Shown here piece after piece: positions 26,677 to 59,434 of a stretch of DNA of 64,000 bases. Within the stretch, counting starts at the first letter, position 1. The number at the start of each line of letters is the position of its first letter. The position numbers were made by a program, and so were the translations under genes. A model generated the notes under the pieces. That model worked only from the letters and a program-made list of their open reading frames with translations. It was not told the DNA's origin and did not search any database. Source of the stretch: Patescibacteria group bacterium (GTDB lineage: Bacteria > Patescibacteriota > WWE3 > UBA101185 > UBA10185); assembly GCA_049322215.1 (NCBI GenBank), contig JBMORU010000001.1, forward strand, positions 129,697 through 193,696, written 5' to 3'.

Positions 26677-26739
26677 CCTATAGTGTTGGATACCACAGTG
26701 CCCCATAGTGTTTATCTTTTGAATTTTTATTGATATAAT
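26677..26739 (+). promoter_or_regulatory. tandem CCTATAGTG / CCCCATAGTG elements plus -35/-10
   Basis: Two motif copies 24 bp apart. The second is fused to GTTTAT, 17 nt, TATAAT. Confidence 0.6.
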
Positions 26740-26776
26740 CCCTAAAACTCAAATACAACAAATAAAGGAGATGCTC

Positions 26777-27349
26777 ATGTCAAAAAATGGCATTAGAATT
26801 GGTGTTTGGCGGTTTGACTCTGCAAAAGACAGGGAGTCACTACCGCTTGAAAAAGCCAAATGGGAAGGCGCCGCGTTTAGTTTTGAAGATTTGGTTGCAT
26901 TGAGCCAAAATAGGGGCTATTTGGCATATACTCTTGACCGTGCTGGGAATCATCGTATCACTTACTCCGAGGCAGCCGCTCTTTTGGGTGTAAATCCTTG
27001 GTTTAATTTGGCGGTGCAAAGTGGTGCGCTGCAAAAACTAAAACAAATTTACTACAGTCTGATCTTTCCAAGCACCGTAGTAAGTATGACTTTAGAGCAA
27101 TTTAACAACTGGAAACGCGTACAAGACACTTTCTTCAGCAAAGAACACCATTCATTTTTTTATATGGATGGGAAAGGAAACGACTTAGTAGTAGCACGTG
27201 CCCACATAAGTGGTATTCAAAATAATGGGCGTGTGTACATTTGGATTCAAAAAGTTCTTCATCGCGGAATCAATACCCAAATTGCTGCAGATACAACGTT
27301 TGTTGCACACTACAGCAATCTATATCTGCTGAAAAATGAAGAGACTTAA
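26777..27349 (+). CDS. hypothetical protein (about 190 aa)
   Basis: AAAGGAGA SD 6 nt before the ATG at 26777; tandem CCYATAGTG promoter at 26677-26739. Confidence 0.6.
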   Translation: MSKNGIRIGVWRFDSAKDRESLPLEKAKWEGAAFSFEDLVALSQNRGYLAYTLDRAGNHRITYSEAAALLGVNPWFNLAVQSGALQKLKQIYYSLIFPSTVVSMTLEQFNNWKRVQDTFFSKEHHSFFYMDGKGNDLVVARAHISGIQNNGRVYIWIQKVLHRGINTQIAADTTFVAHYSNLYLLKNEET

Positions 27350-27743
27350 TCCTAAACATGGCATTGTCATGATGTCTATGGGCGGATCTGACACGCAATG
27401 GTGTTTTATGGTACTTATGGTTACAGAACTCGAACCCTTTTTAAAAAGGGAAAACAAACAGGAGCCAAAAAGCCACCATTTAACTACCGAGGAGCTAGGC
27501 GGCGGAATTGTACAACTCAATATGCAAAACGCATTGTTTGGCTTCTTTATTCCCCTAACTTTACCAAGCGATGCTTTTCTAAACTGGGTTTTGGGTCAGG
27601 AACAAAAGTATGGAATGAGCCTTGTGTTCGACATAGATACAAAAGAGCCAGTGTGCCAAATTTCACGAATGGGTTTGTCACAGCTTTTGATTACCGACTG
27701 GTTACCCCACTTTAGAGAACGCATGCTACTTGACGTGAAGTAA
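27336..27743 (+). CDS. hypothetical protein (135 aa)
   Basis: Overlaps the previous gene; terminator at 27748-27798. Confidence 0.4.
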   Translation: MKRLNPKHGIVMMSMGGSDTQWCFMVLMVTELEPFLKRENKQEPKSHHLTTEELGGGIVQLNMQNALFGFFIPLTLPSDAFLNWVLGQEQKYGMSLVFDIDTKEPVCQISRMGLSQLLITDWLPHFRERMLLDVK

Positions 27744-27747
27744 CTTG

Positions 27748-27798
27748 AGGGAGTGCTAAATTTATTATTACGTAATAAATTTACACTCCTTTTTTTAT
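27748..27798 (+). terminator. rho-independent terminator
   Basis: GGAGTGCTAAATTTATTA…TAATAAATTTACACTCC stem followed by T7. Confidence 0.7.
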
Positions 27799-27824
27799 GG
27801 ACAAAAACATGCCCCACAAACCTA

Positions 27825-27863
27825 GCCTATAGTTTTGACTGAAAAAGATTTTGATAGTATAAT
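27825..27863 (+). promoter_or_regulatory. class A CCCYATAG promoter
   Basis: GCCTATAGT-TTTGACT, 17 nt, TATAAT. Confidence 0.65.
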
Positions 27864-27898
27864 TTCCCTACAAATCAACATATACCAAAGGAGAAAAC

Positions 27899-28522
27899 AT
27901 GTTCACAAGAACAAAAGTTTTTGGACTTCCTGTGAAAAACAGGCTTTTTGCAATGTGGGCACTAATGCAACTTGCCGCAGTACTTACGCTTACAATTCAG
28001 TTTGCACAGTTGTATGCCACTACGTCTTTTGACCCAAAATGGAAAATTGCCACATCAATCTTTTCGATTTTTGTTATTTATGTGGCTTACCTAAATGCAA
28101 GTCGAAATGACGGAATCGCAACCTCCTTTTTAGCCGTAGTTTTTGGCGCATTAGGGTACGGCATGTGGGCAGATGGCATTACAACCATTACTCCATTACA
28201 TACAGTAGAAATGCTTTTCGCATTAATGCTGGTTGTAGCTGGGCTAATTATGATGGAGTTAATTAAACCAGGAATTGTTGCAAAACACCGGGTGTTAATG
28301 TTTCCTGCGCTTGTAGCCTCGGTGGTAGTAATGAATGTCGCCCGTGGATCAGAGGCACTAGGAGTATGGGATGTAGCAATGCTCATCTTTTTTTCTGCCT
28401 CAGTAACGCTGGAATACGAACGCGCCTGGAATCGGGAGCATAACATAGACAATGCAATCGATTTCAGCTTGGAATTTATGGTTGGAATGTTTCAAACCAT
28501 AAAAGAGGCGGTGCAAAAATGA
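27899..28522 (+). CDS. membrane protein (207 aa, about 5 TM)
   Basis: AAAGGAGA SD; promoter at 27825-27863. Confidence 0.6.
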   Translation: MFTRTKVFGLPVKNRLFAMWALMQLAAVLTLTIQFAQLYATTSFDPKWKIATSIFSIFVIYVAYLNASRNDGIATSFLAVVFGALGYGMWADGITTITPLHTVEMLFALMLVVAGLIMMELIKPGIVAKHRVLMFPALVASVVVMNVARGSEALGVWDVAMLIFFSASVTLEYERAWNREHNIDNAIDFSLEFMVGMFQTIKEAVQK

Positions 28523-29145
28523 CACAGCGCAAAAAGGAAGACGAAAAATGGGTTGCAGCAAGATTAACAATCGAGCTGTTTCGCGTTTTATTACAGCTTA
28601 CGGTGTTGGTATTACCCATAATTCACGGGTTACTATACTTCGCACCAAGTGATTTAAACAAAGTAGTAGGTGCAGAAACCCATACAGAAGATGAAAATCT
28701 CATCGCATACTACTGTCAGGATCCCGAAACCGGTGATTTTAGCAGCTGTACCTCGGACGACTGGGAACTTGTTGCCACGGGTTTACCCCCTGTAGTTGGT
28801 GTCGCATCTGACGGCTCAGGCAATCTTATCATATTGTTTGAAGAAGAGGGTTACTACTGGACGGGAGATACTGCAAACGGCCCAACTCAGCAAATTATGC
28901 CCGTGCAAGAAGGTTTGGTAGTAATTGACATCGCAGCAAACCAAGAAGGTGCTTTTGTTGCGGTTTGTCGTCAAGGAGCACGGGTTTGGGATTGCTTTAA
29001 CAACAATCTGGACTTTGCTTTGCAAGACGATCAAAAGCTGGTAGCTCTAACATTTGCAGATGATTCCACCTCTGAACCTGTTTTGTGGTGTGGTGTACGA
29101 GACTCAAAACGTTCAACAGACGCATGCCTAACGCTTGAAGAATAA
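28519..29145 (+). CDS. membrane-anchored or secreted protein (208 aa)
   Basis: ATGA start/stop overlap with the previous gene; N-terminal TM; 6 Cys; terminator at 29161-29207. Confidence 0.55.
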   Translation: MTQRKKEDEKWVAARLTIELFRVLLQLTVLVLPIIHGLLYFAPSDLNKVVGAETHTEDENLIAYYCQDPETGDFSSCTSDDWELVATGLPPVVGVASDGSGNLIILFEEEGYYWTGDTANGPTQQIMPVQEGLVVIDIAANQEGAFVAVCRQGARVWDCFNNNLDFALQDDQKLVALTFADDSTSEPVLWCGVRDSKRSTDACLTLEE

Positions 29146-29220: not shown

Positions 29221-29258
29221 CCCTATAGTTTGACTAGCCGGACACTTTACCCTATAAT
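29221..29258 (+). promoter_or_regulatory. class A CCCYATAG promoter
   Basis: CCCTATAGT-TTGACT, 17 nt, TATAAT. Confidence 0.7.
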
Positions 29259-29295
29259 TAAGCACACAAATCAGGTATTCATAAGGAGATAAATA

Positions 29296-29817
29296 ATGAA
29301 ACCCAAATATGCGGTTACAGTAATAGATACAATTGGTATCGGAAGCGTTTTCATTGTGAAGCGCGAAGACCAGACACGCATTTTGTGGAGAGAATCTGTT
29401 CGCCAGGGCACGCCATTAGTAACGGCTGTGGCAAACTTAGTGACAGACAGGTTTATGGCGTTAGAAGTTACAACTCCAGAAATGTATTATCCAACCTGGA
29501 ACGTAGAGGGAATTGTAGTTGCCCGCTCTTACCCCTCGACCACTCCAATTATCGTTCACAGAACCCACCACACCCGCTACGGCACTAGCTATTTAGTAGT
29601 GGGCAGTGATATTCAGGGTGTATGGACGCTTCATTGGGATCAAGGGCAATACACTTTGACGAAGGAACGCTTCGACGAAGTAAACATCGATGGGCTAGGG
29701 TTTTTGTACGGCATACGCAACGGTAACCGTGTTTCTGTAGGAAACTGGAAAAACGGCCGTGTACAAAAAACCTACGATTTCACGAAGTCGAGACACCCGG
29801 AAGACTACTTCGTGTAA
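29296..29817 (+). CDS. hypothetical protein (173 aa)
   Basis: CATAAGGAGA SD; promoter at 29221-29258; terminator at 29825-29873. Confidence 0.6.
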   Translation: MKPKYAVTVIDTIGIGSVFIVKREDQTRILWRESVRQGTPLVTAVANLVTDRFMALEVTTPEMYYPTWNVEGIVVARSYPSTTPIIVHRTHHTRYGTSYLVVGSDIQGVWTLHWDQGQYTLTKERFDEVNIDGLGFLYGIRNGNRVSVGNWKNGRVQKTYDFTKSRHPEDYFV

Positions 29818-30807: not shown

Positions 30808-31188
30808 ATGGATAAAAATAAAGTGGTTTACGCAATATTTGTGCTTTTAATTCTTTTATCCATACCTTTAGCTTTAACTATTATAACCGCAAATGAATTA
30901 GCCAACTGCTATGAGCAATCTTCGCAAATATTAACTATAGAAACCGAAAGAATGCTTACAGAAACAGACGGTATACCACAAAAAGGAGACATTTGCAGCA
31001 CTGGCTACACAATTACTAAAGATTTAATGTCTTGCGTGAATAAAGTTGATAAAAAATCTTTAATCCCCTTGCCTATAATATATAAAGCAACCAATTTAAT
31101 TCAAAAAAGCGAAGTTAATCCTATATACGCAGCACAAAAGCACAATGAATTTTGTGGTGAATATAGCGAGTATTTCATAAACCTATAG
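30808..31188 (+). CDS. small membrane-anchored Cys-containing protein
   Basis: ORF with an N-terminal TM segment. The track start 30802 is TTG. Confidence 0.4.
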   Translation: MDKNKVVYAIFVLLILLSIPLALTIITANELANCYEQSSQILTIETERMLTETDGIPQKGDICSTGYTITKDLMSCVNKVDKKSLIPLPIIYKATNLIQKSEVNPIYAAQKHNEFCGEYSEYFINL

Positions 31189-31219
31189 CATTTACACTTC
31201 GAGTGTTATGGGGTATAAT
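31183..31219 (+). promoter_or_regulatory. class A CCCYATAG promoter
   Basis: CCTATAGC-ATTTACA, 17 nt, TATAAT. Confidence 0.65.
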
Positions 31220-31263
31220 TATTGCAGATTCGAATTCTAATCTAGTACATAAGGAGATCTCCA

Positions 31264-31614
31264 ATGACAAATGAAGAATCGAAAGAAACGCGTCGTAAAG
31301 CTTACTGGCGTCGAGTTCCTGTGGTGCAACTGATTAACACCATTCGTGAACACAAAACCGGCACAACGTATTTCCTGGTAGGCTGTATGATCTTTGCTCA
31401 CGTGCTCGGCTGGCCCTTCATGGTTACCCTGGCAAAATGGACCTTCATCATGGCGACCACCATTTATGTTTGGGAAGCAATCACGGACAAATACGAAGTT
31501 ATTTGGCCTGATATGCCCAAAATGCCCAAATTCCGCCGACTCACGATCAAAGGTATCCGTCGCCGTATCGCTGATGCTCTGAATCCGGACAAACCCGAAG
31601 CCAACAACAGCTAA
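31264..31614 (+). CDS. small membrane protein (116 aa) with atypical (GC-richer, CGT/CTG/CCG) codon usage
   Basis: CATAAGGAGA SD; promoter at 31183-31219; terminator at 31635-31688. By eye its composition is clearly different from its neighbours. Confidence 0.6.
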   Translation: MTNEESKETRRKAYWRRVPVVQLINTIREHKTGTTYFLVGCMIFAHVLGWPFMVTLAKWTFIMATTIYVWEAITDKYEVIWPDMPKMPKFRRLTIKGIRRRIADALNPDKPEANNS

Positions 31615-36997: not shown

Positions 36998-37606
36998 TTA
37001 GTTATTAGACGGGGTGACACGTGTGCCAGGCACATTAGGGTCAATCATGTCACACATCCAACCATCATTTTCCCCGGGACGGCCACTAATGCAGGCACTA
37101 GGACTGGGGCTATTATCGGTTGCGCCCATACAAAGTGCAACTTTGATTTCGCCTTCCAGCATATCTACATCAGAAACCGAATACCAGACAACAGGTAAAC
37201 TCTGATCACATCTGGAGTCACCTAGCTGTGGGAACTCTTTCCACCATTCCAAATTTCCGCCGACGGCATTTAGAGAGGGTGCTACAACATCATCGACATC
37301 TCCGACACCACCACCAGAACCTGGAAGTGTTTCGTTAGCGGTAGCTTCGTCTGGGGTATTGGACAAAACAGGAGTAACAGCAACACCAGGCGTATCCGTA
37401 GGCATTTCAAGAATTTGATCATGATAAACGGAATCCTGCTCCTGTGCGGCATCCAACTCAAGAACCTTAGGAACAGACGTCGCTTCAGTTTCTGTAACAG
37501 AGGTGTCAGTGTCACCAGGAAACTCCGGTGTATTACAGGCAACCAAAGCAAAAGCTAAACCGACTAGAACCAAAACCAGCGTACGTAAAAACTTGTTTTT
37601 AAACAT
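36998..37606 (-). CDS. secreted lipoprotein, GC-richer than its neighbours
   Basis: Lipobox-like 'LAFALVAC'; minus-strand promoter at 37643-37671 containing CCCCATAGT. Confidence 0.55.
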   Translation of the reverse strand: MFKNKFLRTLVLVLVGLAFALVACNTPEFPGDTDTSVTETEATSVPKVLELDAAQEQDSVYHDQILEMPTDTPGVAVTPVLSNTPDEATANETLPGSGGGVGDVDDVVAPSLNAVGGNLEWWKEFPQLGDSRCDQSLPVVWYSVSDVDMLEGEIKVALCMGATDNSPSPSACISGRPGENDGWMCDMIDPNVPGTRVTPSNN

Positions 37607-37642
37607 TTTAATCTCCTTTATTAGTTTACGTAGTGTTCAGAT

Positions 37643-37671
37643 ATTTTATCATACTATGGGGTATATAACAA
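37643..37671 (-). promoter_or_regulatory. class B promoter on the minus strand (element inside the spacer)
   Basis: Reverse complement reads TTGTTA, spacer containing CCCCATAGT, then TG-ATAAAAT. Confidence 0.5.
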
Positions 37672-40395: not shown

Positions 40396-40424
40396 TTTAC
40401 ACTAACCTATAGTAGTAGTATAAT
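40396..40424 (+). promoter_or_regulatory. class B promoter (element in the spacer)
   Basis: TTTACA, 17-nt spacer containing CCTATAGT, then TATAAT. Confidence 0.55.
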
Positions 40425-40456
40425 TAAAGTATTATCACAAACTATTGGAGGTTAAC

Positions 40457-40777
40457 ATGAAGGTCTGGAATACACTCAAAAAGATTGGAAAAGGACTTGG
40501 TTATCTGGCAAACGGCATATTGGTACTGGTATTGGCCGGTGTTGCTACCTATTACACAATGGAGTCCATTGTGGCAGTAGACTTACTCAGCACCCTAGTT
40601 GCGCTACCGGCAATACCCCTGGCTTTCTTTGTTGGCTCAGCAAAAGCGGCGTCAATTTACTTTCCGATAATGCTCGCCACCATCTACATGTTTTATGGAT
40701 TAGTGGCAACCTGCATCGGATTCCCTCAATACACCGTTAAACCACTATACAACAAGTTTAAGCAGTACACCGACTAA
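40457..40777 (+). CDS. small 3-TM membrane protein, GC-richer
   Basis: The track start 40445 is TTG. The ATG at 40457 follows GGAGG. Promoter at 40396-40424; terminator at 40785-40840. Confidence 0.55.
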   Translation: MKVWNTLKKIGKGLGYLANGILVLVLAGVATYYTMESIVAVDLLSTLVALPAIPLAFFVGSAKAASIYFPIMLATIYMFYGLVATCIGFPQYTVKPLYNKFKQYTD

Positions 40778-40784
40778 CTAACTT

Positions 40785-40840
40785 CCGAAATGAGAGCAAA
40801 GTTTTAAAAAAACCCTCTCATTTCGGAATACTCTTTTTTA
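40785..40840 (+). terminator. rho-independent terminator
   Basis: CCGAAATGAGAG…CTCTCATTTCGG 12-bp stem followed by T6. Confidence 0.65.
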
Positions 40841-40868
40841 TATTTAAAAACCCCTTATAATTTCACTA

Positions 40869-41609: not shown

Positions 41610-41639
41610 ACCAAATTATTCTCTATAATTAGTAGACAC

Positions 41640-43589: not shown

Positions 43590-43591
43590 TA

Positions 43592-43927: not shown

Positions 43928-43931
43928 ACAC

Positions 43932-44462
43932 ATGACTCCAAAAGATTTAACAGATAGTCTATTTTGGGTATTTATATTTATAGTTATTATAGGGTTAATA
44001 ATTTTTAGCCTGTTTTTTAAAACCACAACATCTGAAACTGCACAACAACAAGAATCTTCATTAAGTTTTGACAAAACTAAAATCAAAGTTAAAAACATAG
44101 AACTAGAAGTAGAAATAGCAGACACACCTGCAAAACGAGCACGGGGTTTAATGTTTAGAACTGATCTTGCCGATAATGAAGGTATGATATTTATATTTCC
44201 TATGGCATATAAACAGTCATTTTGGATGGCAAACACCAAAATACCTTTAGATATAGTTTGGATTAATGAAAACATGGAAATTGTACACATAAACGCAAAC
44301 ACGCCTCCTTGCCAAAAAACTGGAAACTTAAAAGCCTACTGTACTACCTACAAAACTGATACCGCCGCAAAGTATGTACTAGAAGTAAACGGAGGTTGGA
44401 TGGAAAAAAATAATGTACAAGTAGGTGATCGTATAGAAGTATTAAAAAACCTCTCAGAGTAA
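43932..44462 (+). CDS. DUF192 (COG1430) domain protein, signal-anchored
   Basis: 'EVEIADTPAKRARGLMFR…GMIFIFP…FWMANTKIPLDIVWI' matches the DUF192 consensus. Confidence 0.75.
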   Translation: MTPKDLTDSLFWVFIFIVIIGLIIFSLFFKTTTSETAQQQESSLSFDKTKIKVKNIELEVEIADTPAKRARGLMFRTDLADNEGMIFIFPMAYKQSFWMANTKIPLDIVWINENMEIVHINANTPPCQKTGNLKAYCTTYKTDTAAKYVLEVNGGWMEKNNVQVGDRIEVLKNLSE

Positions 44463-44475
44463 CTACCTAAACAAA

Positions 44476-46617: not shown

Positions 46618-46630
46618 TTTTTATAATAAC

Positions 46631-49600
46631 TTAATTACCAGTATTTAAACCCTCTAAAAAGCCAAACGTTTCACTTAAATTAGATATGACTAGATTTAAA
46701 GCATTATCAGAAGCTTTAGGCGTTATACTTACAGTATCAATTGATTTTGCTTCATTATTGGCTTTATCTTTTGAGATTGCACGCAAGTGATAAACTTTAG
46801 ATGTATTTAAGCCTGTTAAAATTACCACGTGGTTGTAAGTTAAACTAGAATCTTCCTGACTTTTTTGAGAATATGTTGTACCAGTACCCTCACCAAACTC
46901 TACTTGAGAAGTAGCCGGCTCATCTGTATCCCAACTTACAACTAATTGAGCAGAAGCTTCATTATTATTCGCTTTTGTAATAGAACCTTCAACTTTAAGG
47001 TTAGTAATAGATGGCGGTCGTGTATCTGTTGCGGTCGTTACGCGCTGTGGATCACTAACTGCCTCATTGCCTGCTTTATCTCTACCTTTTACTATCATTA
47101 TGTAGGTTGTTTCTGGTAGCAAGCCTCTAATAATCAGCCTATGCGCGCCTGTAACTAATTGAACATTAACTTCGTCTCTCACATCTGCAGGGTTATTCTC
47201 AGGGTAATAAGTAATTATTGAAGAAACTTCTGTGTTAGTTACCCAAGATACTAAAGTAGCCGGTTGTGCTGAATTTCTAACCTGCTGTACTTTAACTCCA
47301 GATATTCTTGGGCGAGGTAATGTTTCAAAAGACAAAATATTACCTTCGTATTCTGCATCTTCTGTATCAAAAGTATTAATTTTATAAAAATATTTAATCC
47401 CGTCTTCTAACTCTTCTAAAGCGGTGTTGTAGGTAGTTTCTGCTGTGGATGTTGAAAGTTCTAAAGACCCCCCAAAGGCAGATGTTTTCCCATAGTAAAT
47501 TTTTACTTTAGAAGCACCTTTTACAGTGTATTGTAAAACAACGTTATTTATTCCAATTGTTTTTGCACTTGGATCTTTTACTGAGGGTGCGGGCTCTGTT
47601 TCAAAAGTAAATTCATCGCTTACTCCCGTATTACCGTCTTCATCGGTCCATTTTGCCAAAGCATAATACTTGGTACCCGGGCTTAAATTAGTTAAATTAA
47701 TTTCATGTGCAGTAACTTGAGTTGAATTTGAAGGCTCCTCATCAAAATAGTCACCAGAGCTTTTACCATACTGAACTTTAGAATCACTAGTTCTGTCAGT
47801 TGACCAGGATATAATAGCTTGTTTTGTAGTAATACCTGTAACCTCAGGATCGGTTTCTAAACCAGCAGCTTCTGTGAATTTACCTGTAGGTAAAAGTACA
47901 ACTGCAGTACTAAAGGCACCACAATTTGAAACACTGTCACAAGCACGAACCTTATAATAATAATTTTGCTGTAGCAAATTAGTATCTATATATGCTAAAC
48001 CTGTGGTGGTAGCAAGCAAACTATAAGAACTACCATCAGTAGAGCTGTGTATTTGATATGTAGATACCCCTGAACCAACATCTGAAGGAGCTGTCCAAGA
48101 AAGTGCTAAACGCCAAGACTCGGTACTTTTTATGGATACATCAGAAATATCCAAATTAAGTGGTATACCCGGAGCAGAAGTATTAGCCGTAAAAGATATA
48201 CTTGCATAAGCACCGTAGTTAATACTCCCACCAACATCCGAACTATTTTTGGCAGCAATATAAAAAGTATTAATTCCTACCTGCGTCGCAAATGAGCTGG
48301 CAGAAAGCGATGTAGCACCAGCACTAGTATAAGTACATGTTGCAGACGAGGGTAAAGTATTAACTGTGTAGCAATAGGTTAAGCCACTAGATTCTCCCGA
48401 GTAAGTTTCAGGAATCTGCCAGGAAAAAGAAAACGAATTTACAGTATTGGTAGTTGGAGTAACAGATAAAAATCTTGGAGCCGTGGGTCCTTCGCCTGCA
48501 AAGTAGTAAGTTGCTTGCAAACTTGTGGCAGAAACATTTCCCGCAGTATCTACAGTACGTAAGTAAAATGTATTTGCGTCTGTTTGGTAAGCGGCTTCAG
48601 CAATTTCTACAGAAGTATCGGTGGTTGTACTCGACCAATCACTCAAAGCACCCGAAGAAGCGCCTGTTTTATATTGATAACCCGCAATCCCAGATCCCGT
48701 ATCGCTTGCAATACCATCCCCAACAGATGGCCAAGAAAATGTAAAAGAATTAGTTGAAGCATAGCCCGAGGGTGTAACGGTTATAGTGCTAGGGTTTGAT
48801 GGGTTTGTGTTGTCATACTTATATATAAATGGGGCATAAACGGTGCTTACGTTTTGAGCATTGTCTTTAGTTTGAATTCTTAAATAATATGTTTGTCCAC
48901 TTGTTAAACTTGCTGCAGAATAGCTTGTACCTGTTTGAAATACACCTGCAGTAGAAGGAACGGCAGCACTATCTGTACCAAAGTAAACAAAGTATCCGGC
49001 AATGCCTGCTCCACCAGAGTCAGAAGCCCCCGCCCATGAAAAATAGGGTGTCGCATAGCTATACCAGTTATTAGTGCTAATTGAAATTCCTCCGGAAGTA
49101 CTCAACGAAGTTAAACTACTTGGAGGGTTTGGGTCTGTTGTGTCTGAATTTGCCTCTACTGTTACCGAACTTAAAGTTACTTCCTGCGTTCCATCACCAT
49201 CTAGTACTGCTTGCCACTTAATACCACTACTTGTGACAGGAAAAGAAGGTATATTTGTATTAACTACGGAAGCCGCGTTTGCTTGTGCTGTTGACGCTGA
49301 TGTTTCCCAAGAGTCACCATCCCAATACTTCCAAGTAGAACCATTATCGCTAGATAACCTATATGTAATTGTTCCACCATTGGCTGTTTCAGAAACAACA
49401 AAACCCGCATAGCTTCCAATATCTTCAGTAAAGGCGGCTGCTGCATTTTGCACTGTTTGAGCAGCGCTAGCGTAAGCGGAGGTATTAAAAGAGCTGCGTG
49501 CAGTATCGCTTATACGAACTTCATCTATCAACCCTTGAAAGTATCCTTGAGCACGACCTTGTTCTCTACCTGCATAAGTAGCACCTATTAGCAAATCATG

Positions 49601-52540: not shown

Positions 52541-52547
52541 TTATATT

Positions 52548-53489
52548 TCAAAAATTAAGATAATTATATGCCTCACTAGAAAGTTTTTCCATGAAATTTA
52601 ACGCAGAAGCACGCCCTGTATCTGTTGTGTCAGCAACAAATACAGTAATCAAATATGGCTTATTTGGAACATACACAATACCACTATCTAAATATAAACC
52701 TTCTTGATTTTTTTCACCAAATTTATGAGCAAAAACCACATCGGAAGACAACCCACTATTAAGATATTCGTCATAGGGTGATTTTGATAGCCAAAAAAGC
52801 ATTTGTTGAGATGATTCTCTATTTAAGTAACTAGAAGTGTATAGGGCGCGAAATAGCCTAGAGTACTCCTTAGCTGAAATCTCTCCGGCTTCGTTAAAAA
52901 GTTCTTCTAATCCTAAAGTATCACCAAATTGAGTTACGTCGTTTAGCGATAAATTTTTATATAAAATATTATGCGCAGTGTTATCTGAATTAATTAACGA
53001 TTGTTGAAGTAATTCGTCTAAAGTAAATGTTGCTCCGGGTTTACTTTTATATAAATCACCCCAACCTGAATCTCTATCTTCTTCTGTTAAGTTAAATTCA
53101 GTATCCATCGCAAGTACACCCTCCTCTATTTTTTTCATATACATCATAGCTACTGGAACCTTAGTTAAACTTGCAGGATTAACGCGCATTTCGGGATTTA
53201 AAGAAATGTTAGAGCCTGTATTAAGAAACTCAATATATACAGAAATTGAGGCGTCTGGATAACTGCTTAAAAGGTTTACTGCGTATTCTCTTAAAGGTTT
53301 TAAATTAACAATAAAATACTTTTGCTCTATAAAACTTCGTGAAAAATCTATAAATGGATATGGGTTAGTTAGTGAGGTAGCCTCAAAACTTTTTCTATAG
53401 TGCGAAGATACATACAAAGTAGTAAAGTTGCTCAATAGCAAAACTATAATTATAATTATGTACCCTCTATTTCTTAATTTCATAGGCAT
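52548..53489 (-). CDS. signal-anchored serine hydrolase, class A beta-lactamase / D-Ala-D-Ala carboxypeptidase-like
   Basis: 'ASLTK' (SxxK) and 'SDNTAHNIL' (SDN) motifs; N-terminal TM. Confidence 0.55.
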   Translation of the reverse strand: MPMKLRNRGYIIIIIVLLLSNFTTLYVSSHYRKSFEATSLTNPYPFIDFSRSFIEQKYFIVNLKPLREYAVNLLSSYPDASISVYIEFLNTGSNISLNPEMRVNPASLTKVPVAMMYMKKIEEGVLAMDTEFNLTEEDRDSGWGDLYKSKPGATFTLDELLQQSLINSDNTAHNILYKNLSLNDVTQFGDTLGLEELFNEAGEISAKEYSRLFRALYTSSYLNRESSQQMLFWLSKSPYDEYLNSGLSSDVVFAHKFGEKNQEGLYLDSGIVYVPNKPYLITVFVADTTDTGRASALNFMEKLSSEAYNYLNF

Positions 53490-53571
53490 ACTGAATAATA
53501 GAGTATTCTGGGGCGGGTGGGAATAGACATGTTCTTACAAGTGGCAATGATGTATTATTTTAGTTGAAGAT

Positions 53572-54390
53572 ATGAATGAAGTTACTACAAGTCCTACAAC
53601 TCCTATAATTTCTATTGAAGATGTACATAAAAGCTTTCAAGTTGGAATACAAGATATTCAAATACTCAAAGGAGTAGATGTAAAAATAAATTACGGAGAC
53701 TTTGCGGTCATTATTGGACCATCAGGCTGCGGAAAATCTACACTTCTGCACATTTTGTTAGGACTGGAGCCTCCTACTAAAGGCATAGTTAAATTTTTGG
53801 GATCAGACTTATATGCCGGTACTAATGAAGATACTCGCTCAGACTTTAGAAAAAAGCACATAGGAATGGTATATCAACAAGCCAACTGGATCAAATCTTT
53901 AACTGTGATTGAAAACGTATCGTTTCCGTTATTACTACTAGGAATAGGAAAACCTAAAGCTATGGCTAAAGCTTATGAAATGTTAAAAAAAGTTAACATG
54001 CAAGATTGGGGAGATTACATACCTACAGAGCTATCTGGAGGACAACAACAAAGGGTGGCTTTAGCAAGAGCATTAATTAATAACCCCGAAATTATAATTG
54101 CAGATGAACCTACAGGAAACCTGGACTACGAAGCCGGTCAAAATATAATGACGCTTTTGACAAACTTAAATAATGAATTTGGAAAAACCGTAATTATGGT
54201 AACGCATGACTTAGAATACATTTCTTATGCAAAAACTACAGTTAGACTTTTAGACGGAAAAGTATTAGGCATTTACAATGAAGGTCAAAAAGATAAATTA
54301 ATGGAAGAACTAAAATTTAAACGACTGGGTGATATGAAAGCAAAATTACAAGAAAGTGAAAACATAACACCTGCACCAGCAACTAACTAA
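53572..54390 (+). CDS. ABC transporter ATP-binding protein (MacB/LolD/FtsE-like)
   Basis: Walker A 'GPSGCGKST', signature 'LSGGQQQRVALARAL', Walker B 'IIIADEPTGNLD'. Confidence 0.9.
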   Translation: MNEVTTSPTTPIISIEDVHKSFQVGIQDIQILKGVDVKINYGDFAVIIGPSGCGKSTLLHILLGLEPPTKGIVKFLGSDLYAGTNEDTRSDFRKKHIGMVYQQANWIKSLTVIENVSFPLLLLGIGKPKAMAKAYEMLKKVNMQDWGDYIPTELSGGQQQRVALARALINNPEIIIADEPTGNLDYEAGQNIMTLLTNLNNEFGKTVIMVTHDLEYISYAKTTVRLLDGKVLGIYNEGQKDKLMEELKFKRLGDMKAKLQESENITPAPATN

Positions 54391-54503
54391 ATTAGCTAAT
54401 ATCATTTAACCCCATAGCAAACTAATGGTGCAGCTTTCCAACTAAAAAATTTGTGATACAATTTAAATCCACAAAACCTATAAGAAAAAGGAGGTGACCA
54501 CAA

Positions 54504-54743
54504 ATGAGAGACGTAGCTATTACAAGTAGGTTTCCATGGATTGACGATTTGCTGGTACTTCTACAAATCAAGTATGGCAGACCTGAACCTGGGTTTCGAC
54601 TGTTTTACTCAGATGCAGAAGTAGCTGAGCATACGGGACTCGTAGCAAAAGTAGCACATGCGCGTGGGCTGGTAAAACCCGCTAAAGATGGCTTTGGTTG
54701 GGTTCCAACGCAAAAAGGCAAACACATGTTTTTGCGCTACTAA
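54504..54743 (+). CDS. hypothetical protein (79 aa)
   Basis: AAAGGAGG SD; extended -10 TGTGATACAAT at about 54452-54462; terminator at 54788-54834. Confidence 0.5.
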   Translation: MRDVAITSRFPWIDDLLVLLQIKYGRPEPGFRLFYSDAEVAEHTGLVAKVAHARGLVKPAKDGFGWVPTQKGKHMFLRY

Positions 54744-54787
54744 ACCCATGAAGTGAGGGAGTACCATGAAGTACGTCAAAGTTAAAA

Positions 54788-54834
54788 AGAGGTGATAGTG
54801 TTAAACAAACAAAGCATTTTCACCTCTTTTATTT
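54788..54834 (+). terminator. rho-independent terminator
   Basis: AGAGGTGA…TCACCTCT stem followed by a T-rich tail. Confidence 0.55.
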
Positions 54835-54844
54835 ATCTAGCAAT

Positions 54845-55579
54845 TTAAGACATAACAGAATTTTCAACAATTTCTATTTCTTTATTCTCCACATTTTTCA
54901 TGCGTTGAAAACCTAAAAGAGAAAACACCAAAACAGAAGAAACCACAATACCTACAAAATTTACTAAAAACATATCAAAAGCACCTTTCATAACAGCTAC
55001 GTCCCCTTGAGAAAGACCTATGCCCACAACACAAAGCGGGGGTAATAAGGCTACCGCAACAGCCACGCCGGGCAATGTAGCTGATAACTTAGGTTTTGCC
55101 CAACAATATGTTGCAGCTAATCCTGATAGCAGTGCTATATGTACATAAAACCAACTTGGTTCAGTTCTTTGTAATATCTCACTACTTTGAAGGGTTTCAA
55201 TACCAGAGTAGGAAGAAACTAAATACGATAAAAACAAAACAATAGTAACCGATCTAATTATTGCCCAACTTGAACGAACTAAAGATTTAAAACTTACCGT
55301 TACAAACCCTAAACCTAATGCCAGTATAGATGTAAGAAGTGGTGTAATTAGCATACCTCCAATCACAATAGACCCATTGTTGCTTAATAAACCAAAGGTA
55401 GTTATAAGCGTAGAAATAATTAATAAAACAAAATAATCAAAATTTGTATTACTATCATCTATTAAACGCGATACTGCCTCTTTTTTTTCGGTAAAGTTCC
55501 TGCGTAAAGATGTATTTATATAAAAACCATGTAGGAACTTAACTTTTTCTTCAGCAAACAGCTTTGACACTATGTTCAT
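54845..55579 (-). CDS. polytopic membrane protein (possibly DUF389-like)
   Basis: Hydrophobic throughout. The track start at 55717 would overlap tal, so an internal ATG (MNIVSK) was chosen. Assignment is tentative. Confidence 0.4.
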   Translation of the reverse strand: MNIVSKLFAEEKVKFLHGFYINTSLRRNFTEKKEAVSRLIDDSNTNFDYFVLLIISTLITTFGLLSNNGSIVIGGMLITPLLTSILALGLGFVTVSFKSLVRSSWAIIRSVTIVLFLSYLVSSYSGIETLQSSEILQRTEPSWFYVHIALLSGLAATYCWAKPKLSATLPGVAVAVALLPPLCVVGIGLSQGDVAVMKGAFDMFLVNFVGIVVSSVLVFSLLGFQRMKNVENKEIEIVENSVMS

Positions 55580-55614
55580 ACAATAATAATACCAGAGCAT
55601 GCTAAACTTTACCC

Positions 55615-56502
55615 ATGCGACCTGCAAACCTGAAAACCAAGATATTTTTAGACAGTGGGGATCCACAAGAAACAAAGCAAGCTTTAGATTTATTAGGGTT
55701 TTTAGATGGACAAACAACTAATCCAAGCTTGGTTGCAAATAAACTAAAGAAAAATAACGAAGGTATTAAACTAAGCGCACAAAACCTATTGAGTGAATAT
55801 AAAAAAATAGTTCAGGAAGTATCAGTATTAATACCAAAGGGCTCAGTTTCAATAGAAGTGTATGCAGATAAAAACTCAACAGCACAACAGCTATTTGTAC
55901 AAGGTCAAGAAATGTTTAGCTGGATACCCAATGCACACATTAAATTTCCAACTACAACCGCAGGTTTAGAAGCAGCTCAAAAAGCTATACAAAATAAAAT
56001 GAGAGTCAATATGACTTTAGTATTTACTCAACAACAGGCTGCCGCAGTATTTGCAGCAACAAGAGGGGCCAAATTTGGAGAGGTATTTGTATCCCCTTTT
56101 ATTGGACGTCTCGACGATACCAATGTAAATGGGATGTCTTTAGTTGATAACATTTCAAAAATGTATAAAACCCAATCCGAAAATCATGTGCAAGTTTTAG
56201 CAGCAAGCATAAGAACGCTACCTCACTTTTTATATAACATTTATGCAAAAACAGACATAGTAACAGTACCGTATGAATTACTAAAAAAATGGTCAGACCT
56301 GGGAAAGCCGTTACCGGGGGAAAATATTAACATAGCCGCTTTTGAAGATGAAAAAGTTTATTTAAAGGCTGAAAAGCTAGAGAATATTCCTTTTGAGGAT
56401 CTAAATTTAGAGAATACATGGCAAGAATATAGTATTAATCACCCTTTAACAGATACAGGCTTAGAAAAATTTGCTGCCGACTGGAATAGCTTAATTTTAT
56501 AA
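55615..56502 (+). CDS. tal: transaldolase / fructose-6-phosphate aldolase family
   Basis: 'KIFLDSGD…GQTTNPSLV' signature and Schiff-base Lys context 'IKFPTT'. Confidence 0.8.
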   Translation: MRPANLKTKIFLDSGDPQETKQALDLLGFLDGQTTNPSLVANKLKKNNEGIKLSAQNLLSEYKKIVQEVSVLIPKGSVSIEVYADKNSTAQQLFVQGQEMFSWIPNAHIKFPTTTAGLEAAQKAIQNKMRVNMTLVFTQQQAAAVFAATRGAKFGEVFVSPFIGRLDDTNVNGMSLVDNISKMYKTQSENHVQVLAASIRTLPHFLYNIYAKTDIVTVPYELLKKWSDLGKPLPGENINIAAFEDEKVYLKAEKLENIPFEDLNLENTWQEYSINHPLTDTGLEKFAADWNSLIL

Positions 56503-56530
56503 CTTTTAATAAGCAGATGCAGGGCTCAGT

Positions 56531-56559
56531 TTGCAATATACACCCTATAGTATTATAAT
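56531..56559 (+). promoter_or_regulatory. class B promoter, copy 1 of a 48-bp duplicated promoter
   Basis: TTGCAA, 17-nt spacer ending in CCCTATAGTAT, then TATAAT. Confidence 0.6.
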
Positions 56560-56605
56560 GTAGTTAGAGTCAAATATATACCATTGCATACATAAGGAGA
56601 ACAAA

Positions 56606-56989
56606 ATGCAAAAAGTAACCAGATCAATTTTATTGGTATCCGCTCTGCTGATCGCCACCGCGGGAATTACATTTGCTGCAACGGCACTCAGCTTGACCAA
56701 CGTTCGTAATGCTTCGCAACTAATCTGGAACAACCGGGAAGACCTGACCCAACAGATTGTAGAAGATGCCATCGAAACCATTGATTCTAACGCCGACAAC
56801 GTTGAATACGTGGTTAGCACCCATGACTACGGGTTTGGCGAAACAGTCCAGGAAGTTGAAGTAACCTTTGAGACCACAGGCACCTGGAAGTATAGCCGCT
56901 ATGCATACTACCTGAAAGGTTTTGGTATTTTCAACCTCAAGGTATACAACGGAAACGCCACGTTAAGCATCTTCATGAACGAACGTTAG
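56606..56989 (+). CDS. small secreted protein (127 aa) with atypical GC-rich codon usage
   Basis: Signal peptide 'ILLVSALLIATAGITFA'; CATAAGGAGA SD; promoter at 56531-56559; terminator at 56996-57052. Confidence 0.6.
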   Translation: MQKVTRSILLVSALLIATAGITFAATALSLTNVRNASQLIWNNREDLTQQIVEDAIETIDSNADNVEYVVSTHDYGFGETVQEVEVTFETTGTWKYSRYAYYLKGFGIFNLKVYNGNATLSIFMNER

Positions 56990-56995
56990 CCACAT

Positions 56996-57052
56996 CGGAG
57001 GGTTTAGACTTGTTTAAAATCAAACTAACAAGCCTAACCCTCCCTTTTTTTA
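56996..57052 (+). terminator. rho-independent terminator
   Basis: GGAGGGTTTAG…CTAACCCTCC stem followed by T7. Confidence 0.7.
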
Positions 57053-57146
57053 TCTTAAACTTTTATATACATAAAAAAGGCATTGATTCCTAAAATTTTA
57101 TATAAAAATATACATAGTATTACTTAGTTAGCACGAGTGTTTATAG

Positions 57147-57175
57147 TTGCAATATATACCCTATAGTATTATAAT
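57147..57175 (+). promoter_or_regulatory. class B promoter, copy 2 of the duplicated promoter
   Basis: Near-identical to 56531-56578: TTGCAATATATACCCTATAGTATTATAATGTAGTTAGAGTCAAAT. Confidence 0.6.
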
Positions 57176-57225
57176 GTAGTTAGAGTCAAATTAACTCAGA
57201 AATCACAAATAAAATAGGAGACATC

Positions 57226-58041
57226 ATGTTAGTAACAAAAATTGTTGTACAGATCGTTTTGGTGATTGCAGCAGTATTAGCCTACAAAGGACGTTTGTTT
57301 TTGGAACGCCGCTTATGGGCAGAAGGATCTCGTTCGACCGGCGGTGGTGATTGGGGCGAACATCCTGCGAAAAAAGCTTCCTTTAACATTGCACGCCGCA
57401 TCCTCATTTTTGTGCCCTTTTTGGTAGCCATGATAAGCGTAGGAATGTGGTCACATCCCTATCTAACCGAAGAGAGCGAATTGAAATGGGAATTGGCTTA
57501 CTATAACGGCCATGGCCTGGATCTTACGGCACAGAAAGTTGAAGGTGACCCCTACCTGCTCTACGAAACATTCGGCGGTTTAGTAGAAAACAAATATGAT
57601 ACATTTTCAACGTTCCAGGATTTGTATTTGAGCCAATCAAACGTTATCATCTACGACAACCCGTTCGAAGTAGGCACACCAACGTTTGGCCCCAAAGATG
57701 CACGTGAAATTGACGCCAACATCAAAATGTATGGGAAGGCTAACTGGAAACGCATTGGTTTGCTCATCTGGTGGATAGAAAACAAAGCTGTAGTCAAGTT
57801 AGTGCGTGTGGATACAACTCAACATGAAGGTAATCAGTGGCCGACGGAAATTGTTAACACCACATTAAAAGAAACCGTGGTCGAAAACATTAACCGTGGT
57901 GATTCCTTCGTAGTCACGGTTTCGTTACCCGACGGTCGTGATCAGGACATTTTGTTTCATATGGGAGAGTTGCCGGACTTACATTTGTATACCCCAGCGT
58001 ACTCTCTGACCACGCCAACCTACACCGGAAACGATCGCTAA
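57226..58041 (+). CDS. signal-anchored extracytoplasmic protein (271 aa) with atypical GC-rich codon usage
   Basis: N-terminal TM; the promoter at 57147-57175 is a 48-bp duplicate of the one at 56531; terminator at 58049-58104. Confidence 0.6.
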   Translation: MLVTKIVVQIVLVIAAVLAYKGRLFLERRLWAEGSRSTGGGDWGEHPAKKASFNIARRILIFVPFLVAMISVGMWSHPYLTEESELKWELAYYNGHGLDLTAQKVEGDPYLLYETFGGLVENKYDTFSTFQDLYLSQSNVIIYDNPFEVGTPTFGPKDAREIDANIKMYGKANWKRIGLLIWWIENKAVVKLVRVDTTQHEGNQWPTEIVNTTLKETVVENINRGDSFVVTVSLPDGRDQDILFHMGELPDLHLYTPAYSLTTPTYTGNDR

Positions 58042-58048
58042 CACATAA

Positions 58049-58104
58049 GCCCGCTTGTTTTGACTTTAACTTTGTTAACTTCAAAACAGCGGGCATTTTT
58101 TTTC
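58049..58104 (+). terminator. rho-independent terminator
   Basis: CCCGCTTGTTTTGA…TCAAAACAGCGGG stem followed by T8. Confidence 0.75.
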
Positions 58105-58126
58105 TTTTGCATGATAAACTTTTATT

Positions 58127-59434
58127 ATGAGATTTCAGTATAAAGATACAGCCCAAGTTAAAGAAAACGAGATTATAGGTGAGGGTAAAAGAATTGCTGA
58201 ATATGTAAAACATCTAAATACTGTGGCCAACAGAAATAACTACCAAGACCCAGAAAGTTCAATAAATTTACCTTTTGATGAAAACATACTAAATGAAGTA
58301 CTAAATTTAAAAAAACAGCTAGTTTCTAACAAACTTAAGTATATTTTAAATATAGGTATTGGTGGATCAAATTTAGGCACAAAGGCAATTTATGATGCCA
58401 TATATGGCTACACAGATTTGTTAGAACCACAAAGATTTCCAAAAATAATATTTGCCGATACAACAGACGCTGATTATTTATCCCACATACAAAATTTTTT
58501 AAAAACGCAAATAAAATCCTCTGAAGAAATAATTGTAAACGCAATAAGTAAATCAGGGGGAACTACAGAAACAATAGCAAATTTAGAAATGCTCTTAGGC
58601 TTTATAGACAACTACAAAACCAGGCTGGTAATAACAACAGGGGAAAATTCTGAATTAATGGAAATAGCGCAAAACGAAAATATTGCTACATTATTCATTC
58701 CAAAAACTATTGGGGGTAGATACTCTGTTTTTTCTACTGTAGGTCTTTTTCCTTTAGCATGTGCAAATATTGATGTGTTAGGAGTTTTAGAAGGAGCTAT
58801 GCAAGCACGTGCAGAAGGACTAGAAGAAACCATACTAGAAAATCCAGCGTTAATTTCGGCAATTATAATTTATTTGCAATACAAAGATGGAAAAATAATT
58901 AATGACAATTTCTTTTTTCACCCTGAGTTAGAGTCTTTAGGAAAATGGTACAGACAGCTTATGGCAGAAAGCATAGGCAAAGAGCATGACCTAAATAAAA
59001 ATACTGTTTTTACAGGTATCACACCTACAGTATCTATTGGTTCTACAGATTTGCACTCTATGGGGCAGCTGTACTTAGGAGGTCCACGAAATAAACTATT
59101 TACACTTATACACGGCAGGCATGAAGATTCAAAACCTAAAATTCCAACAGAATTACCGTTGCCACTAACTGTAGTGGAATTAGAAGGCAAAAAAGCAAGC
59201 ACTATAATGGAAGCTATTTATGAAGGTGTCAAAATTGCATACAAAAAACAAGGATTGCCTTTCATGGAAGTACAGCTTAACAATATTGATGAAAATGCTT
59301 TGGGCTATTTTTTGCAGTTTAAAATGATAGAAATGATGTACCTAGGAAAGCTACTTAATGTGAATACGTTTGACCAACCAAATGTAGAGGATTACAAATT
59401 AGAAACAAGAAAAATCCTTCAGGAAGAAAACTAA
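58127..59434 (+). CDS. pgi: glucose-6-phosphate isomerase (short type)
   Basis: 'SKSGGTTET' and 'IGGRYSVFSTVG' PGI signatures. Confidence 0.85.
   Translation: MRFQYKDTAQVKENEIIGEGKRIAEYVKHLNTVANRNNYQDPESSINLPFDENILNEVLNLKKQLVSNKLKYILNIGIGGSNLGTKAIYDAIYGYTDLLEPQRFPKIIFADTTDADYLSHIQNFLKTQIKSSEEIIVNAISKSGGTTETIANLEMLLGFIDNYKTRLVITTGENSELMEIAQNENIATLFIPKTIGGRYSVFSTVGLFPLACANIDVLGVLEGAMQARAEGLEETILENPALISAIIIYLQYKDGKIINDNFFFHPELESLGKWYRQLMAESIGKEHDLNKNTVFTGITPTVSIGSTDLHSMGQLYLGGPRNKLFTLIHGRHEDSKPKIPTELPLPLTVVELEGKKASTIMEAIYEGVKIAYKKQGLPFMEVQLNNIDENALGYFLQFKMIEMMYLGKLLNVNTFDQPNVEDYKLETRKILQEEN

Follow-up and report, generated by a model that had tools for sequence, protein, structure and literature searches.

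Positions 56531-58104 of the window (the whole analysed stretch of DNA, 64 kb from a Patescibacteria chromosome) contain two genes without detectable homologues, here named ORFan1 and ORFan2, which are situated between the transaldolase gene tal and the gene pgi. Each of them is preceded by its own promoter and Shine-Dalgarno (SD) box and is followed by its own intrinsic terminator. The two genes are the most GC-rich members of a GC-enriched class of SD-led genes, and this class is interleaved with AT-rich core genes that appear to be leaderless. We suggest, tentatively and with a probability of roughly 0.45, that the compositional difference reflects a separate, younger accessory history of a fast-turnover, lineage-specific gene class similar to the morons of phages. 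The original prediction, made from the DNA sequence alone, was that the pair had been acquired horizontally, or belonged to an otherwise distinct class, under a promoter type of the host. The distinct class was indeed observed, whereas for acquisition we found neither a donor nor a mobility signature.

The two cassettes consist of the following elements.

56531..56575, + strand: promoter copy 1, with the -35 box TTGCAA at 56531-56536, CCCTATAG at 56543-56550, the -10 box TATAAT at 56554-56559 and about 16 nt shared beyond the -10 box
56576..56605, + strand: 5' untranslated region (5'UTR) of ORFan1, with the SD box AAGGAG at 56594-56599, 6 nt from the ATG; unlike the 5'UTR of ORFan2
56606..56989, + strand: ORFan1, 127 aa, with a signal-peptide-like hydrophobic segment at the N-terminus; GC content at third codon positions (GC3) 0.543; no homologue or family
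56997..57052, + strand: intrinsic terminator of ORFan1, hairpin of -20.1 kcal/mol (z = -5.3) followed by a T-run
57046..57066, + strand: stretch TTTTTTATCTTAAACTTTTAT, resembling the leaderless promoter of pgi at 58105-58125
57147..57191, + strand: promoter copy 2, identical to copy 1 in 44 of 45 positions, with the -35 box at 57147-57152, CCCTATAG at 57159-57166 and the -10 box at 57170-57175
57192..57225, + strand: 5'UTR of ORFan2, with the SD box TAGGAG at 57215-57220, 5 nt from the ATG
57226..58041, + strand: ORFan2, 271 aa, with two N-terminal hydrophobic helices (residues ~1-26 and ~52-78); GC3 0.483
58049..58103, + strand: intrinsic terminator of ORFan2, hairpin of -24.6 kcal/mol (z = -8.0) followed by a T-run

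At the sequence level, each ORFan promoter matches the consensus in 10 of 12 positions, and CCCTATAG ends 3 nt before TATAAT. The terminators are strong, as predicted. The genes would form independent, self-contained expression cassettes between two core genes of the chromosome. The ordinary sigma70-type RNA polymerase would read each cassette from a near-consensus promoter (TTGCAA, 17 nt, TATAAT), and CCCTATAG in the spacer would represent the element typical for promoters of this phylum. Each transcript would start with a ~40-nt leader that contains a canonical SD box and would end at its own intrinsic terminator.

The duplicated promoter is a 45-nt repeat, not 48 bp long as was initially proposed. 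It comprises the -35 box TTGCAA, the 17-nt spacer with CCCTATAG, the -10 box TATAAT and a further ~16 nt. The window contains only these two copies, and the 27-nt core of the repeat has no match in the metagenomes of the Joint Genome Institute. Outside the repeat the two cassettes are unrelated: this applies to the region upstream of the -35 box, the rest of the 5'UTRs, the ORFs (open reading frames) and the terminators. Since only the core promoter is duplicated and everything else is unrelated, copying of a promoter module is preferred over the duplication of a whole cassette with subsequent ORF replacement, which had been suggested and is not the simplest scenario. As judged from the alignment, the repeat would most readily stem from a recent event, either copying or gene conversion, that involved the 45-nt core promoter and nothing else. 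A paralogous relationship between the ORFs was rejected, as their products are unrelated (BLASTP E = 7.2); neither forms a family with the ORFs of the window.

The region between the ORFan1 terminator and promoter copy 2 (57046-57112) contains the AT-rich palindromes TAAACTTTTATATA and TATATAAAAATATA and the pgi-promoter-like TAAACTTTTAT. The similarity of TAAACTTTTAT to the pgi promoter hints at an older junction, though it is within chance. Likewise, the stretch TTTTTTATCTTAAACTTTTAT is possibly a relic of an old junction between a terminator and pgi; an 11-mer match of this kind is expected approximately by chance in an AT-rich spacer.

Both genes are considerably richer in GC than their surroundings, in agreement with the original prediction: tal and pgi have GC3 of 0.251 and 0.246, and compared to 29 leaderless genes (0.242 +/- 0.036) ORFan1 and ORFan2 are higher by 8.4 and 6.7 standard deviations, respectively. 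The codon usage is shifted selectively. The share of ATC among isoleucine codons is 3% in the bulk of the genes and 38% in the pair, and that of ATA is 46% and 8%; AAC constitutes 40% and 91% of asparagine codons, and ACC, 15% and 49% of threonine codons. Among arginine codons, AGA decreases from 49% to 6%, and CGT and CGC together increase from 29% to 88%. On the other hand, the shares of GAA in glutamate (81% and 89%) and of AAA in lysine codons (80% and 78%) are unmoved, and therefore the shift is not a uniform rise in GC. A skew toward a defined subset of codons, as in the pair, is a feature of translationally selected genes. The codons had been described as similar to those of E. coli. 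This holds only in part: CTG (leucine) accounts for 18%, the main proline codon is CCC rather than CCG, and all seven histidine codons are CAT.

The bulk genes nearly avoid NTC codons: ATC constitutes 3% of isoleucine, GTC 4% of valine, CTC 3% of leucine and TTC 9% of phenylalanine codons, while NAC codons are used in 31-44% of cases. The dinucleotides GA/TC are under-represented in both classes of genes (rho* ~0.78). The two observations may be due to a context-dependent TpC-to-TpT mutation bias.

Neither ORFan resembles any known protein. In a search of 5.8 billion proteins each of them matched only itself; thus the proposed BLAST search for a donor lineage yielded none. An exhaustive phmmer (HMMER) scan of 1.84 billion cluster representatives with ORFan2 also produced only the self-match, and no family from Pfam, PHROGs or NCBIfam matched either protein. 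The single-sequence AlphaFold2 models are poor (predicted local distance difference test, pLDDT, 45 and 57). In these low-confidence models, ORFan1 has helices and a five-stranded sheet after the N-terminal segment, and ORFan2 has a beta-rich C-terminal domain after the two N-terminal helices. A Foldseek comparison of the ORFan1 model with PDB gave no match below E = 0.3.

The two ORFs nevertheless look like real genes, because they have SD boxes at 5-6 nt from the start, N-terminal hydrophobic segments, and lower GC3 in the first 12 codons than in the remainder (0.33 vs 0.57 in ORFan1, 0.33 vs 0.49 in ORFan2). With a single hydrophobic segment in ORFan1 and a pair of them in ORFan2, the predicted secreted or anchored location is plausible. 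The product of ORFan1 would be a small secreted or anchored protein, and that of ORFan2, a two-helix membrane protein with a domain facing outward. The proteins are annotated in NCBI as ACOZAO_00995 (ORFan1) and ACOZAO_01000 (ORFan2).

The pair belongs to one of two classes of genes in the window; its class is larger and more sharply delimited than was originally noticed. The 130 nt upstream of every gene were read, and the genes were then classified systematically. About 36 genes have a strong AAGGAG-like SD box and a 5'UTR of 20-54 nt. Nearly all of them are small, they are mostly encoded on the + strand, and most are downstream of a sigma70-type promoter carrying CCYATAG. Almost all lack a Pfam family, the exceptions being a receiver domain and a weak match to PadR. 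The core genes have no SD box. In 73% of the 37 non-SD genes the start codon follows 5-8 nt after the end of a -10-like hexamer (TATAAT or TAAACT), compared to 10% of 167 internal ATGs. Examples are the starts at 15697, 36467 and 39370 (TATAAT, 6-7 nt, ATG) and at 55615, 58127 and 30808 (TAAACT, 6 nt, ATG). With such starts, the core genes, including tal and pgi, appear to be transcribed as leaderless mRNAs.

The two classes differ in composition, and the SD-led class is GC-richer at codon positions 1, 2 and 3. The mean GC3 is 0.375 in the SD-led genes (n = 36), 0.249 in the strictly leaderless genes (n = 19) and 0.294 in the others (n = 27; Mann-Whitney U test, p = 4e-8 for the SD-led genes vs all the rest). 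Among genes of at least 80 aa (28 SD-led, 29 leaderless), the GC content at first positions (GC1) is 0.502 vs 0.437 (p = 2e-5), and at second positions (GC2), 0.384 vs 0.330 (p = 3e-5). The dinucleotide signatures of the classes are separated by delta* = 70.6, and subsets drawn at random from the core give 37 +/- 11; the overall dinucleotide shape is common to both, e.g. GA/TC is at 0.77-0.78. Within the SD-led class GC3 does not correlate with GC1+GC2 (rho = -0.11), and the GC3 of the first 12 codons is lower than that of the remaining ones (0.279 vs 0.383, p = 4e-4). Not every member is GC-rich: the gene at 31809-32186 has a perfect promoter and SD box, yet its GC3 is 0.26. Other members of the class are as follows.

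11777..12148, + strand: gene of a 98-aa protein (11852-12148), the only member with a detected homologue; GC3 0.38
26702..29145, + strand: SD-led unit of four genes with CCCCATAG and GCCTATAG promoters; no Pfam family; GC3 0.37-0.45
29222..29817, + strand: 173-aa ORF with a CCCTATAG promoter and an SD box; no family; GC3 0.50
31182..31614, + strand: 116-aa membrane ORF with a CCTATAG promoter and an SD box; no family; GC3 0.54
36998..37671, - strand: 202-aa acidic lipoprotein-like ORF with a spacer-type CCCCATAG promoter and an SD box; no family; GC1 0.59, GC2 0.45, GC3 0.37
40396..40777, + strand: 106-aa multi-transmembrane ORF with a spacer-type CCTATAG promoter and an SD box; no family; GC3 0.51

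The same anomaly had already been noted for the ORFs starting at 31264 (GC3 0.54) and 40457 (0.51), for the one at 36998 (GC3 0.37, GC1 and GC2 very high) and, in part, for those of 26777-29145 (0.37-0.45); all of them are indeed elevated and are preceded by the motif. The protein encoded by 11852-12148 shares 46-47% identity with a protein of WWE3 (loci L065/L149) whose gene also has a CCTATAG promoter and an SD box, with GC3 of 0.32. In metagenomes this family is represented by one locus that encodes the same protein as L065 and probably comes from the same lineage. The family, with its retained promoter and SD architecture, argues for persistence.

Some further observations concern the same class. 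Tandem promoters are located ahead of the 26777-29145 unit (26677-26740), ACCTATAG-TG-TTGGAT being 25 nt upstream of CCCCATAG-TG-TTTATC. In the region 3823-4100, a perfect promoter of the upstream type (CCCCATAG-TA-TTTACA, 17 nt, TATAAT) serves only a 63-aa SD-led ORF (3909-4100). Further ORFs of 60-80 aa with perfect SD boxes were found at 6259, 8588, 17765, 18446, 22122 and 54504. Given these perfect SD sites on several very short ORFs, the small-protein content is probably under-annotated.

The promoter element of this class is not random. The motif CCCYATAG, named in the original prediction, occurs 16 times in the window, with 2.0 +/- 1.5 occurrences expected, but its first C is not fixed, and the conserved core is CCYATAG or CYATAG. 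Two arrangements were observed. In 20 promoters of the upstream type the element is 1-3 nt upstream of the -35 box; all of them are within the 1-32 kb part of the window (229-31734), 19 of them on the + strand. In five promoters of the spacer type, which include the promoters of both ORFans, it is 3-6 nt upstream of the -10 box, and these are found at 37-58 kb (37671-57166). The two types are thus spatially segregated along the window.

The pattern CCYATAG, 1-2 nt, TTKACW, 17 nt, TATAAT was sought in one genome per GTDB species and matched at least 118 loci. Among the matches listed, 58 loci are labelled Patescibacteria (WWE3, Dojkabacteria, Microgenomates-type, Saccharibacteria). Another 24 of the listed loci come from third-party metagenome-assembled genomes (MAGs) labelled as uncultured Gammaproteobacteria/Pseudomonadales (e.g. 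L005, L008, L013, L016, L034, L047), which are binchicken and co-assembly isolates with 36-47% GC, leaderless starts, SD-led ORFs and CCYATAG promoters. They look like mislabelled Patescibacteria, because of the leaderless starts and SD-led ORFs, and since genes of L047 are homologous to those of the Patescibacteria locus L028. With these included, more than 80 of the loci among the matches listed belong to Patescibacteria. On the other hand, 2.9 million viral contigs of IMG/VR contain 24 single hits of the pattern, which is at chance level and not an enrichment. The promoter type would therefore seem to be a property of the host lineage and not of a mobile element.

In the listed Patescibacteria loci the promoter serves leaderless and SD-led genes alike, and the ATG is often 6-13 nt past TATAAT. 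The leaderless genes have GC3 close to the median of their locus, whereas some of the SD-led ORFs, most of them small, exceed it by 0.1-0.3. In the listed loci labelled as Candidate Phyla Radiation (CPR), GC3 exceeds the locus median by at least 0.10 in 21 of the 90 SD-led ORFs and in 2 of the 118 leaderless ones (pooled Mann-Whitney U test, p = 3e-5). The paired difference of GC3 per locus is +0.065 (Wilcoxon test, p = 0.001), and in non-CPR loci there is no difference; these are comparisons of 8-kb blocks, selected for carrying the promoter, with simple gene calls. The most extreme example is a 279-aa SD-led membrane ORF of Saccharibacteria (L086:6696-7535, - strand) with GC3 of 0.73, compared to 0.30-0.42 in the other genes of its locus. 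Locus L047 contains an inverted pair of small ORFs (5661-5897, + strand, and 6688-6957, - strand) that are 77% identical and have GC3 of 0.52-0.53, the locus median being 0.33. This pair is a local duplication of a GC-rich ORF, and neither the GC3-rich ORFs of the other loci retrieved nor the ORFs of the window include a homologue of it.

Several features of the pair would fit horizontal transfer: the composition atypical at all codon positions, the orphan status and the interstitial position. A scan of about 50 ORFs of the window against Pfam revealed no integrase or recombinase, and the pair has no flanking repeats apart from the promoter copy. A mobile gene pool shared among Patescibacteria was rejected: when 81 GC3-rich ORFs of other loci and all ORFs of the window were compared all against all, GC3-rich ORFs of different Patescibacteria formed no common family, and only the local duplicate pair of L047 was found. 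Contamination with E. coli or vector DNA was rejected as well, since a blastn search with the whole region 56531-58104 had no match in 5,426 E. coli genomes and the leucine, proline and histidine codons are not E. coli-like. There is no support for a prophage or phage origin. Indeed, among 10 proteins of the window, including both ORFans, PHROGs identified only a glycosyltransferase and one weak match of unknown function; a tblastn search of phage and plasmid records with the 271-aa ORFan2 protein found nothing, and the promoter is at chance level in IMG/VR. Integron cassettes were rejected too, as both ORFs are preceded by promoters of their own, the hairpins at their 3' ends are terminators with T-runs, and neither attC nor intI is present.

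According to the interpretation that we favour, the class consists of lineage-specific accessory genes with fast turnover, interleaved with the AT-rich and apparently leaderless core genes. The composition at all three codon positions would then most likely reflect an evolutionary history separate from, and younger than, that of the core, rather than codon adaptation to high expression. A number of observations weigh against this. There is no donor, mobility gene, flanking repeat or family common to the GC3-rich ORFs of different lineages. The promoter grammar is native to the host lineage, so that a foreign gene must either stem from within Patescibacteria or have gained its promoter after arrival. 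The codon shift is of the classic "optimal codon" type, with NNT replaced by NNC, ATA, AGA and TTA lost, and GAA and AAA kept. As the first 12 codons are AT-richer, the synonymous sites look tuned. Amelioration of genes of mixed ages would predict a positive correlation of GC3 with GC1+GC2 within the class, and the observed rho is -0.11. One conserved family, that of 11852, keeps elevated GC3 at 47% protein identity. Finally, the nearest relative is distant (58-60% identity of Pgi), and hence the orphan status and the missing synteny weigh less.

One possibility, which we find rather doubtful, is that these are native, very highly expressed envelope genes, whose GC3-rich codons are kept by selection on translation or mRNA. 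A strong promoter, SD box and terminator are what a design for high expression would look like, and the codon shift (NNC and CGY preferred, few ATA, AGA and TTA, unchanged GAA and AAA) is the canonical one; the AT-richer 5' codons resemble those of tuned mRNAs. Furthermore, the SD-led class as a whole is shifted in a single direction, in which the pair has gone furthest, the 11852 family retains promoter, SD box and elevated GC3 through deep divergence, and this explanation requires no donor or mobility signature. However, in related genomes the genes that encode GroEL and ribosomal proteins keep the GC3 and codon choice of the bulk. The groEL gene of L073 has GC3 of 0.26 (ATC 18%, TTC 11%, CGY 12%), with an SD-led ORF of 0.52 nearby; in L090 the respective values are 0.33 and 0.50, and in L034 the genes of S13, S11 and S4 are at 0.24-0.30, the locus median being 0.30. 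Simple expression-linked codon adaptation is therefore disfavoured. Besides, GC1 and GC2 are shifted too, the gene at 31809-32186 remains at 0.26 despite its perfect promoter and SD box, and high abundance is unlikely for the regulators of the class (the receiver domain and the PadR-like protein). Translational selection is said to be weak in bacteria that grow slowly and have small genomes with few genes for rRNA and tRNA, which we also count against this explanation.

Patescibacteria carry DNA-uptake machinery. If accessory genes were often exchanged among strains, GC-biased gene conversion could raise their GC at all codon positions, as is observed; the class is accessory-like and lacks families, promoter copies with 44 of 45 identical positions are compatible with local gene conversion, and the effect recurs in many lineages without shared genes. 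We consider this improbable, as the change of GC3 from 0.24 to 0.54 far exceeds the effects reportedly described for such conversion in bacteria, and GAA and AAA have not moved to G-ending codons. The least probable explanation by far, to which we give hardly any credence, is an artefact of assembly or binning, in which foreign DNA was joined to a CPR contig at the repeated 45-mer. In the Logan assembly of SRR32167788, which extends the window by 2.3 kb to the left and 10 kb to the right, the contig with tal ends inside promoter copy 1, and the contig with ORFan2, pgi, the ROK gene, rpoD and dnaG starts inside copy 2. Thus in short-read contigs ORFan1 is tied to its neighbours only via the repeat, and its placement rests on the repeat and on the NCBI record, a single contig of 1,112,869 nt (1.11 Mb). 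Short-read assemblers are expected to break at a repeat of such length, and the same independent assembly shows ORFan2 to be contiguous with core genes, which largely answers the concern about misassembly that had been raised. Moreover, both cassettes use the promoter and SD grammar of the host lineage, about 34 similar genes are spread through the window, and there is no match of the region to E. coli, or of ORFan2 to phage and plasmid records.

The source of the DNA is a MAG named "Patescibacteria group bacterium". The window has a GC content of 36.3% and contains no tRNA genes or Rfam families. The gene content is that of ordinary small-genome metabolism, with tal, pgi, a class-II aldolase and a ROK kinase, and the window also encodes GH1/GH5/GH113 hydrolases, PMT-type glycosyltransferases, an FtsX/ABC pair and the 3' end of rpoD. 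The closest Pgi among the 5.8 billion proteins is that of a WWE3 bacterium, with 58-60% identity. The immediate neighbours of the pair are as follows.

55615..56502, + strand: tal (transaldolase, TAL_FSA), the upstream neighbour, a core gene with GC3 of 0.251; apparently leaderless (TAAACT, 6 nt, ATG)
58115..59434, + strand: pgi, the downstream neighbour, with the -10-like TAAACT at 58115-58120 and, 6 nt further, the ATG at 58127; looks leaderless; GC3 0.246

In the WWE3 relative L001 the order DUF389-pgi-ROK-rpoD-dnaG is kept, the gap between the DUF389 gene and pgi is 77 nt, and GC3 is uniform at ~0.23; as a comparison for the tal/pgi site this locus is distant (Pgi 58% identical) and has no tal at the site.

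Two other genes of the window deserve mention. The gene at 46631-52540 (- strand) encodes a surface protein of 1,969 aa with matches to LamG, FN3, Ig-like and Kelch; its GC2 is 0.51, with a strongly negative GC skew in this region (-0.36 to -0.40), GC3 being bulk-like at 0.26. A Phage_holin_4_2 family protein (E = 1e-28) is encoded at 43592-43927 among core genes; its composition is that of the bulk, and no further phage-like gene is nearby.

CPR bacteria have a very large fraction of hypothetical genes, whose regulation is almost unstudied. The features described above provide a handle at the sequence level that separates core genes from a large class of genes without families, many of them for envelope proteins: the CCYATAG promoter grammar, leaderless or SD-led starts, own terminators and composition at three codon positions. 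If the SD-led class is real and expressed, it would mark a candidate repertoire of surface and host-interaction proteins of these episymbionts, and its recognition would improve gene calling and prediction of start sites in CPR MAGs. An evolutionary question is also posed, as the youngest-looking genes are GC-richer than their AT-rich host and have no detectable donor. It is conceivable, although we regard it as rather unlikely, that Patescibacteria genomes contain two co-resident "dialects": the leaderless AT-rich core, and SD-led, GC-enriched micro-cassettes with CCYATAG promoters and bounding terminators, which would be phylum-wide as a type, private to each lineage in content, and in many cases encode small envelope proteins without homologues. 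If this were a dedicated system, the pair would be the most recent additions to it. The system could represent a regulon controlled via a putative CCYATAG-binding factor, it could provide fast-turnover surface or effector proteins for the episymbiotic lifestyle, and its composition could be upheld by a force other than ordinary translational selection. Literature searches found no described CPR promoter element, leaderless/SD dichotomy or codon-class dichotomy; a two-dialect pattern, if true, would be a previously undescribed feature of CPR genome biology.

The closest known systems resemble the ORFan cassettes in part. In integrons the gene cassettes are promoterless and carry attC beside intI, unlike the situation here, where each ORF has its own promoter, the hairpins are terminators with T-runs, and the roughly 50 ORFs of the window that were compared with Pfam include no integrase. 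Atypical genes are reportedly ascribed to horizontal transfer with later amelioration. The composition atypical at all codon positions, the distinct dinucleotide signature, the lack of homologues and the interstitial site are similar to that model. The differences are that no donor, mobility genes or tRNA/repeat borders were found, the genes exceed their AT-rich genome in GC, the promoters and SD boxes follow the grammar of the host itself, only certain codons are shifted, and GC3 is uncorrelated with GC1+GC2 in the class. Highly expressed bacterial genes are said to have the codon bias on which the codon adaptation index is based. The pair is similar to them in preferring NNC, CGT/CGC, GAA and AAA, in avoiding ATA and AGA, and in its strong promoters and SD boxes and AT-rich first codons; it differs in that GroEL and ribosomal protein genes of related Patescibacteria have no such bias, and nonsynonymous positions are shifted too.

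Mixtures of leaderless and SD-led genes occur in the genomes of Mycobacterium and Deinococcus ("group C" of GeneMarkS-2). As in these genomes, many genes of the window have a -10 box 6-7 nt before the start, and others have a canonical SD box. In contrast to them, the modes of initiation here coincide with compositional classes and with the division into core and family-less genes, a coincidence that our literature searches did not find described. For genomes of the mixed kind, PMC12641261 cites Cortes et al. 2013.

The cassettes are similar to phage morons in that a single ORF is preceded by its own sigma70-type promoter and followed by its own terminator, and that GC3 (0.54 and 0.48) is unlike that of the flanking genes (0.25). 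Morons are said to be single ORFs with their own sigma70-type promoter and factor-independent terminator, inserted between two genes and different from these neighbours in base composition; reportedly, they often encode small envelope or accessory proteins of unknown function. Genes acquired horizontally are more often AT-richer than their host. The cassettes described here, on the other hand, are carried not by a prophage but by a cellular chromosome, between tal and pgi (followed by the ROK gene and rpoD), and IMG/VR shows no enrichment of their promoter type. They exceed the host in GC content and occur as dozens of units interleaved with core genes.

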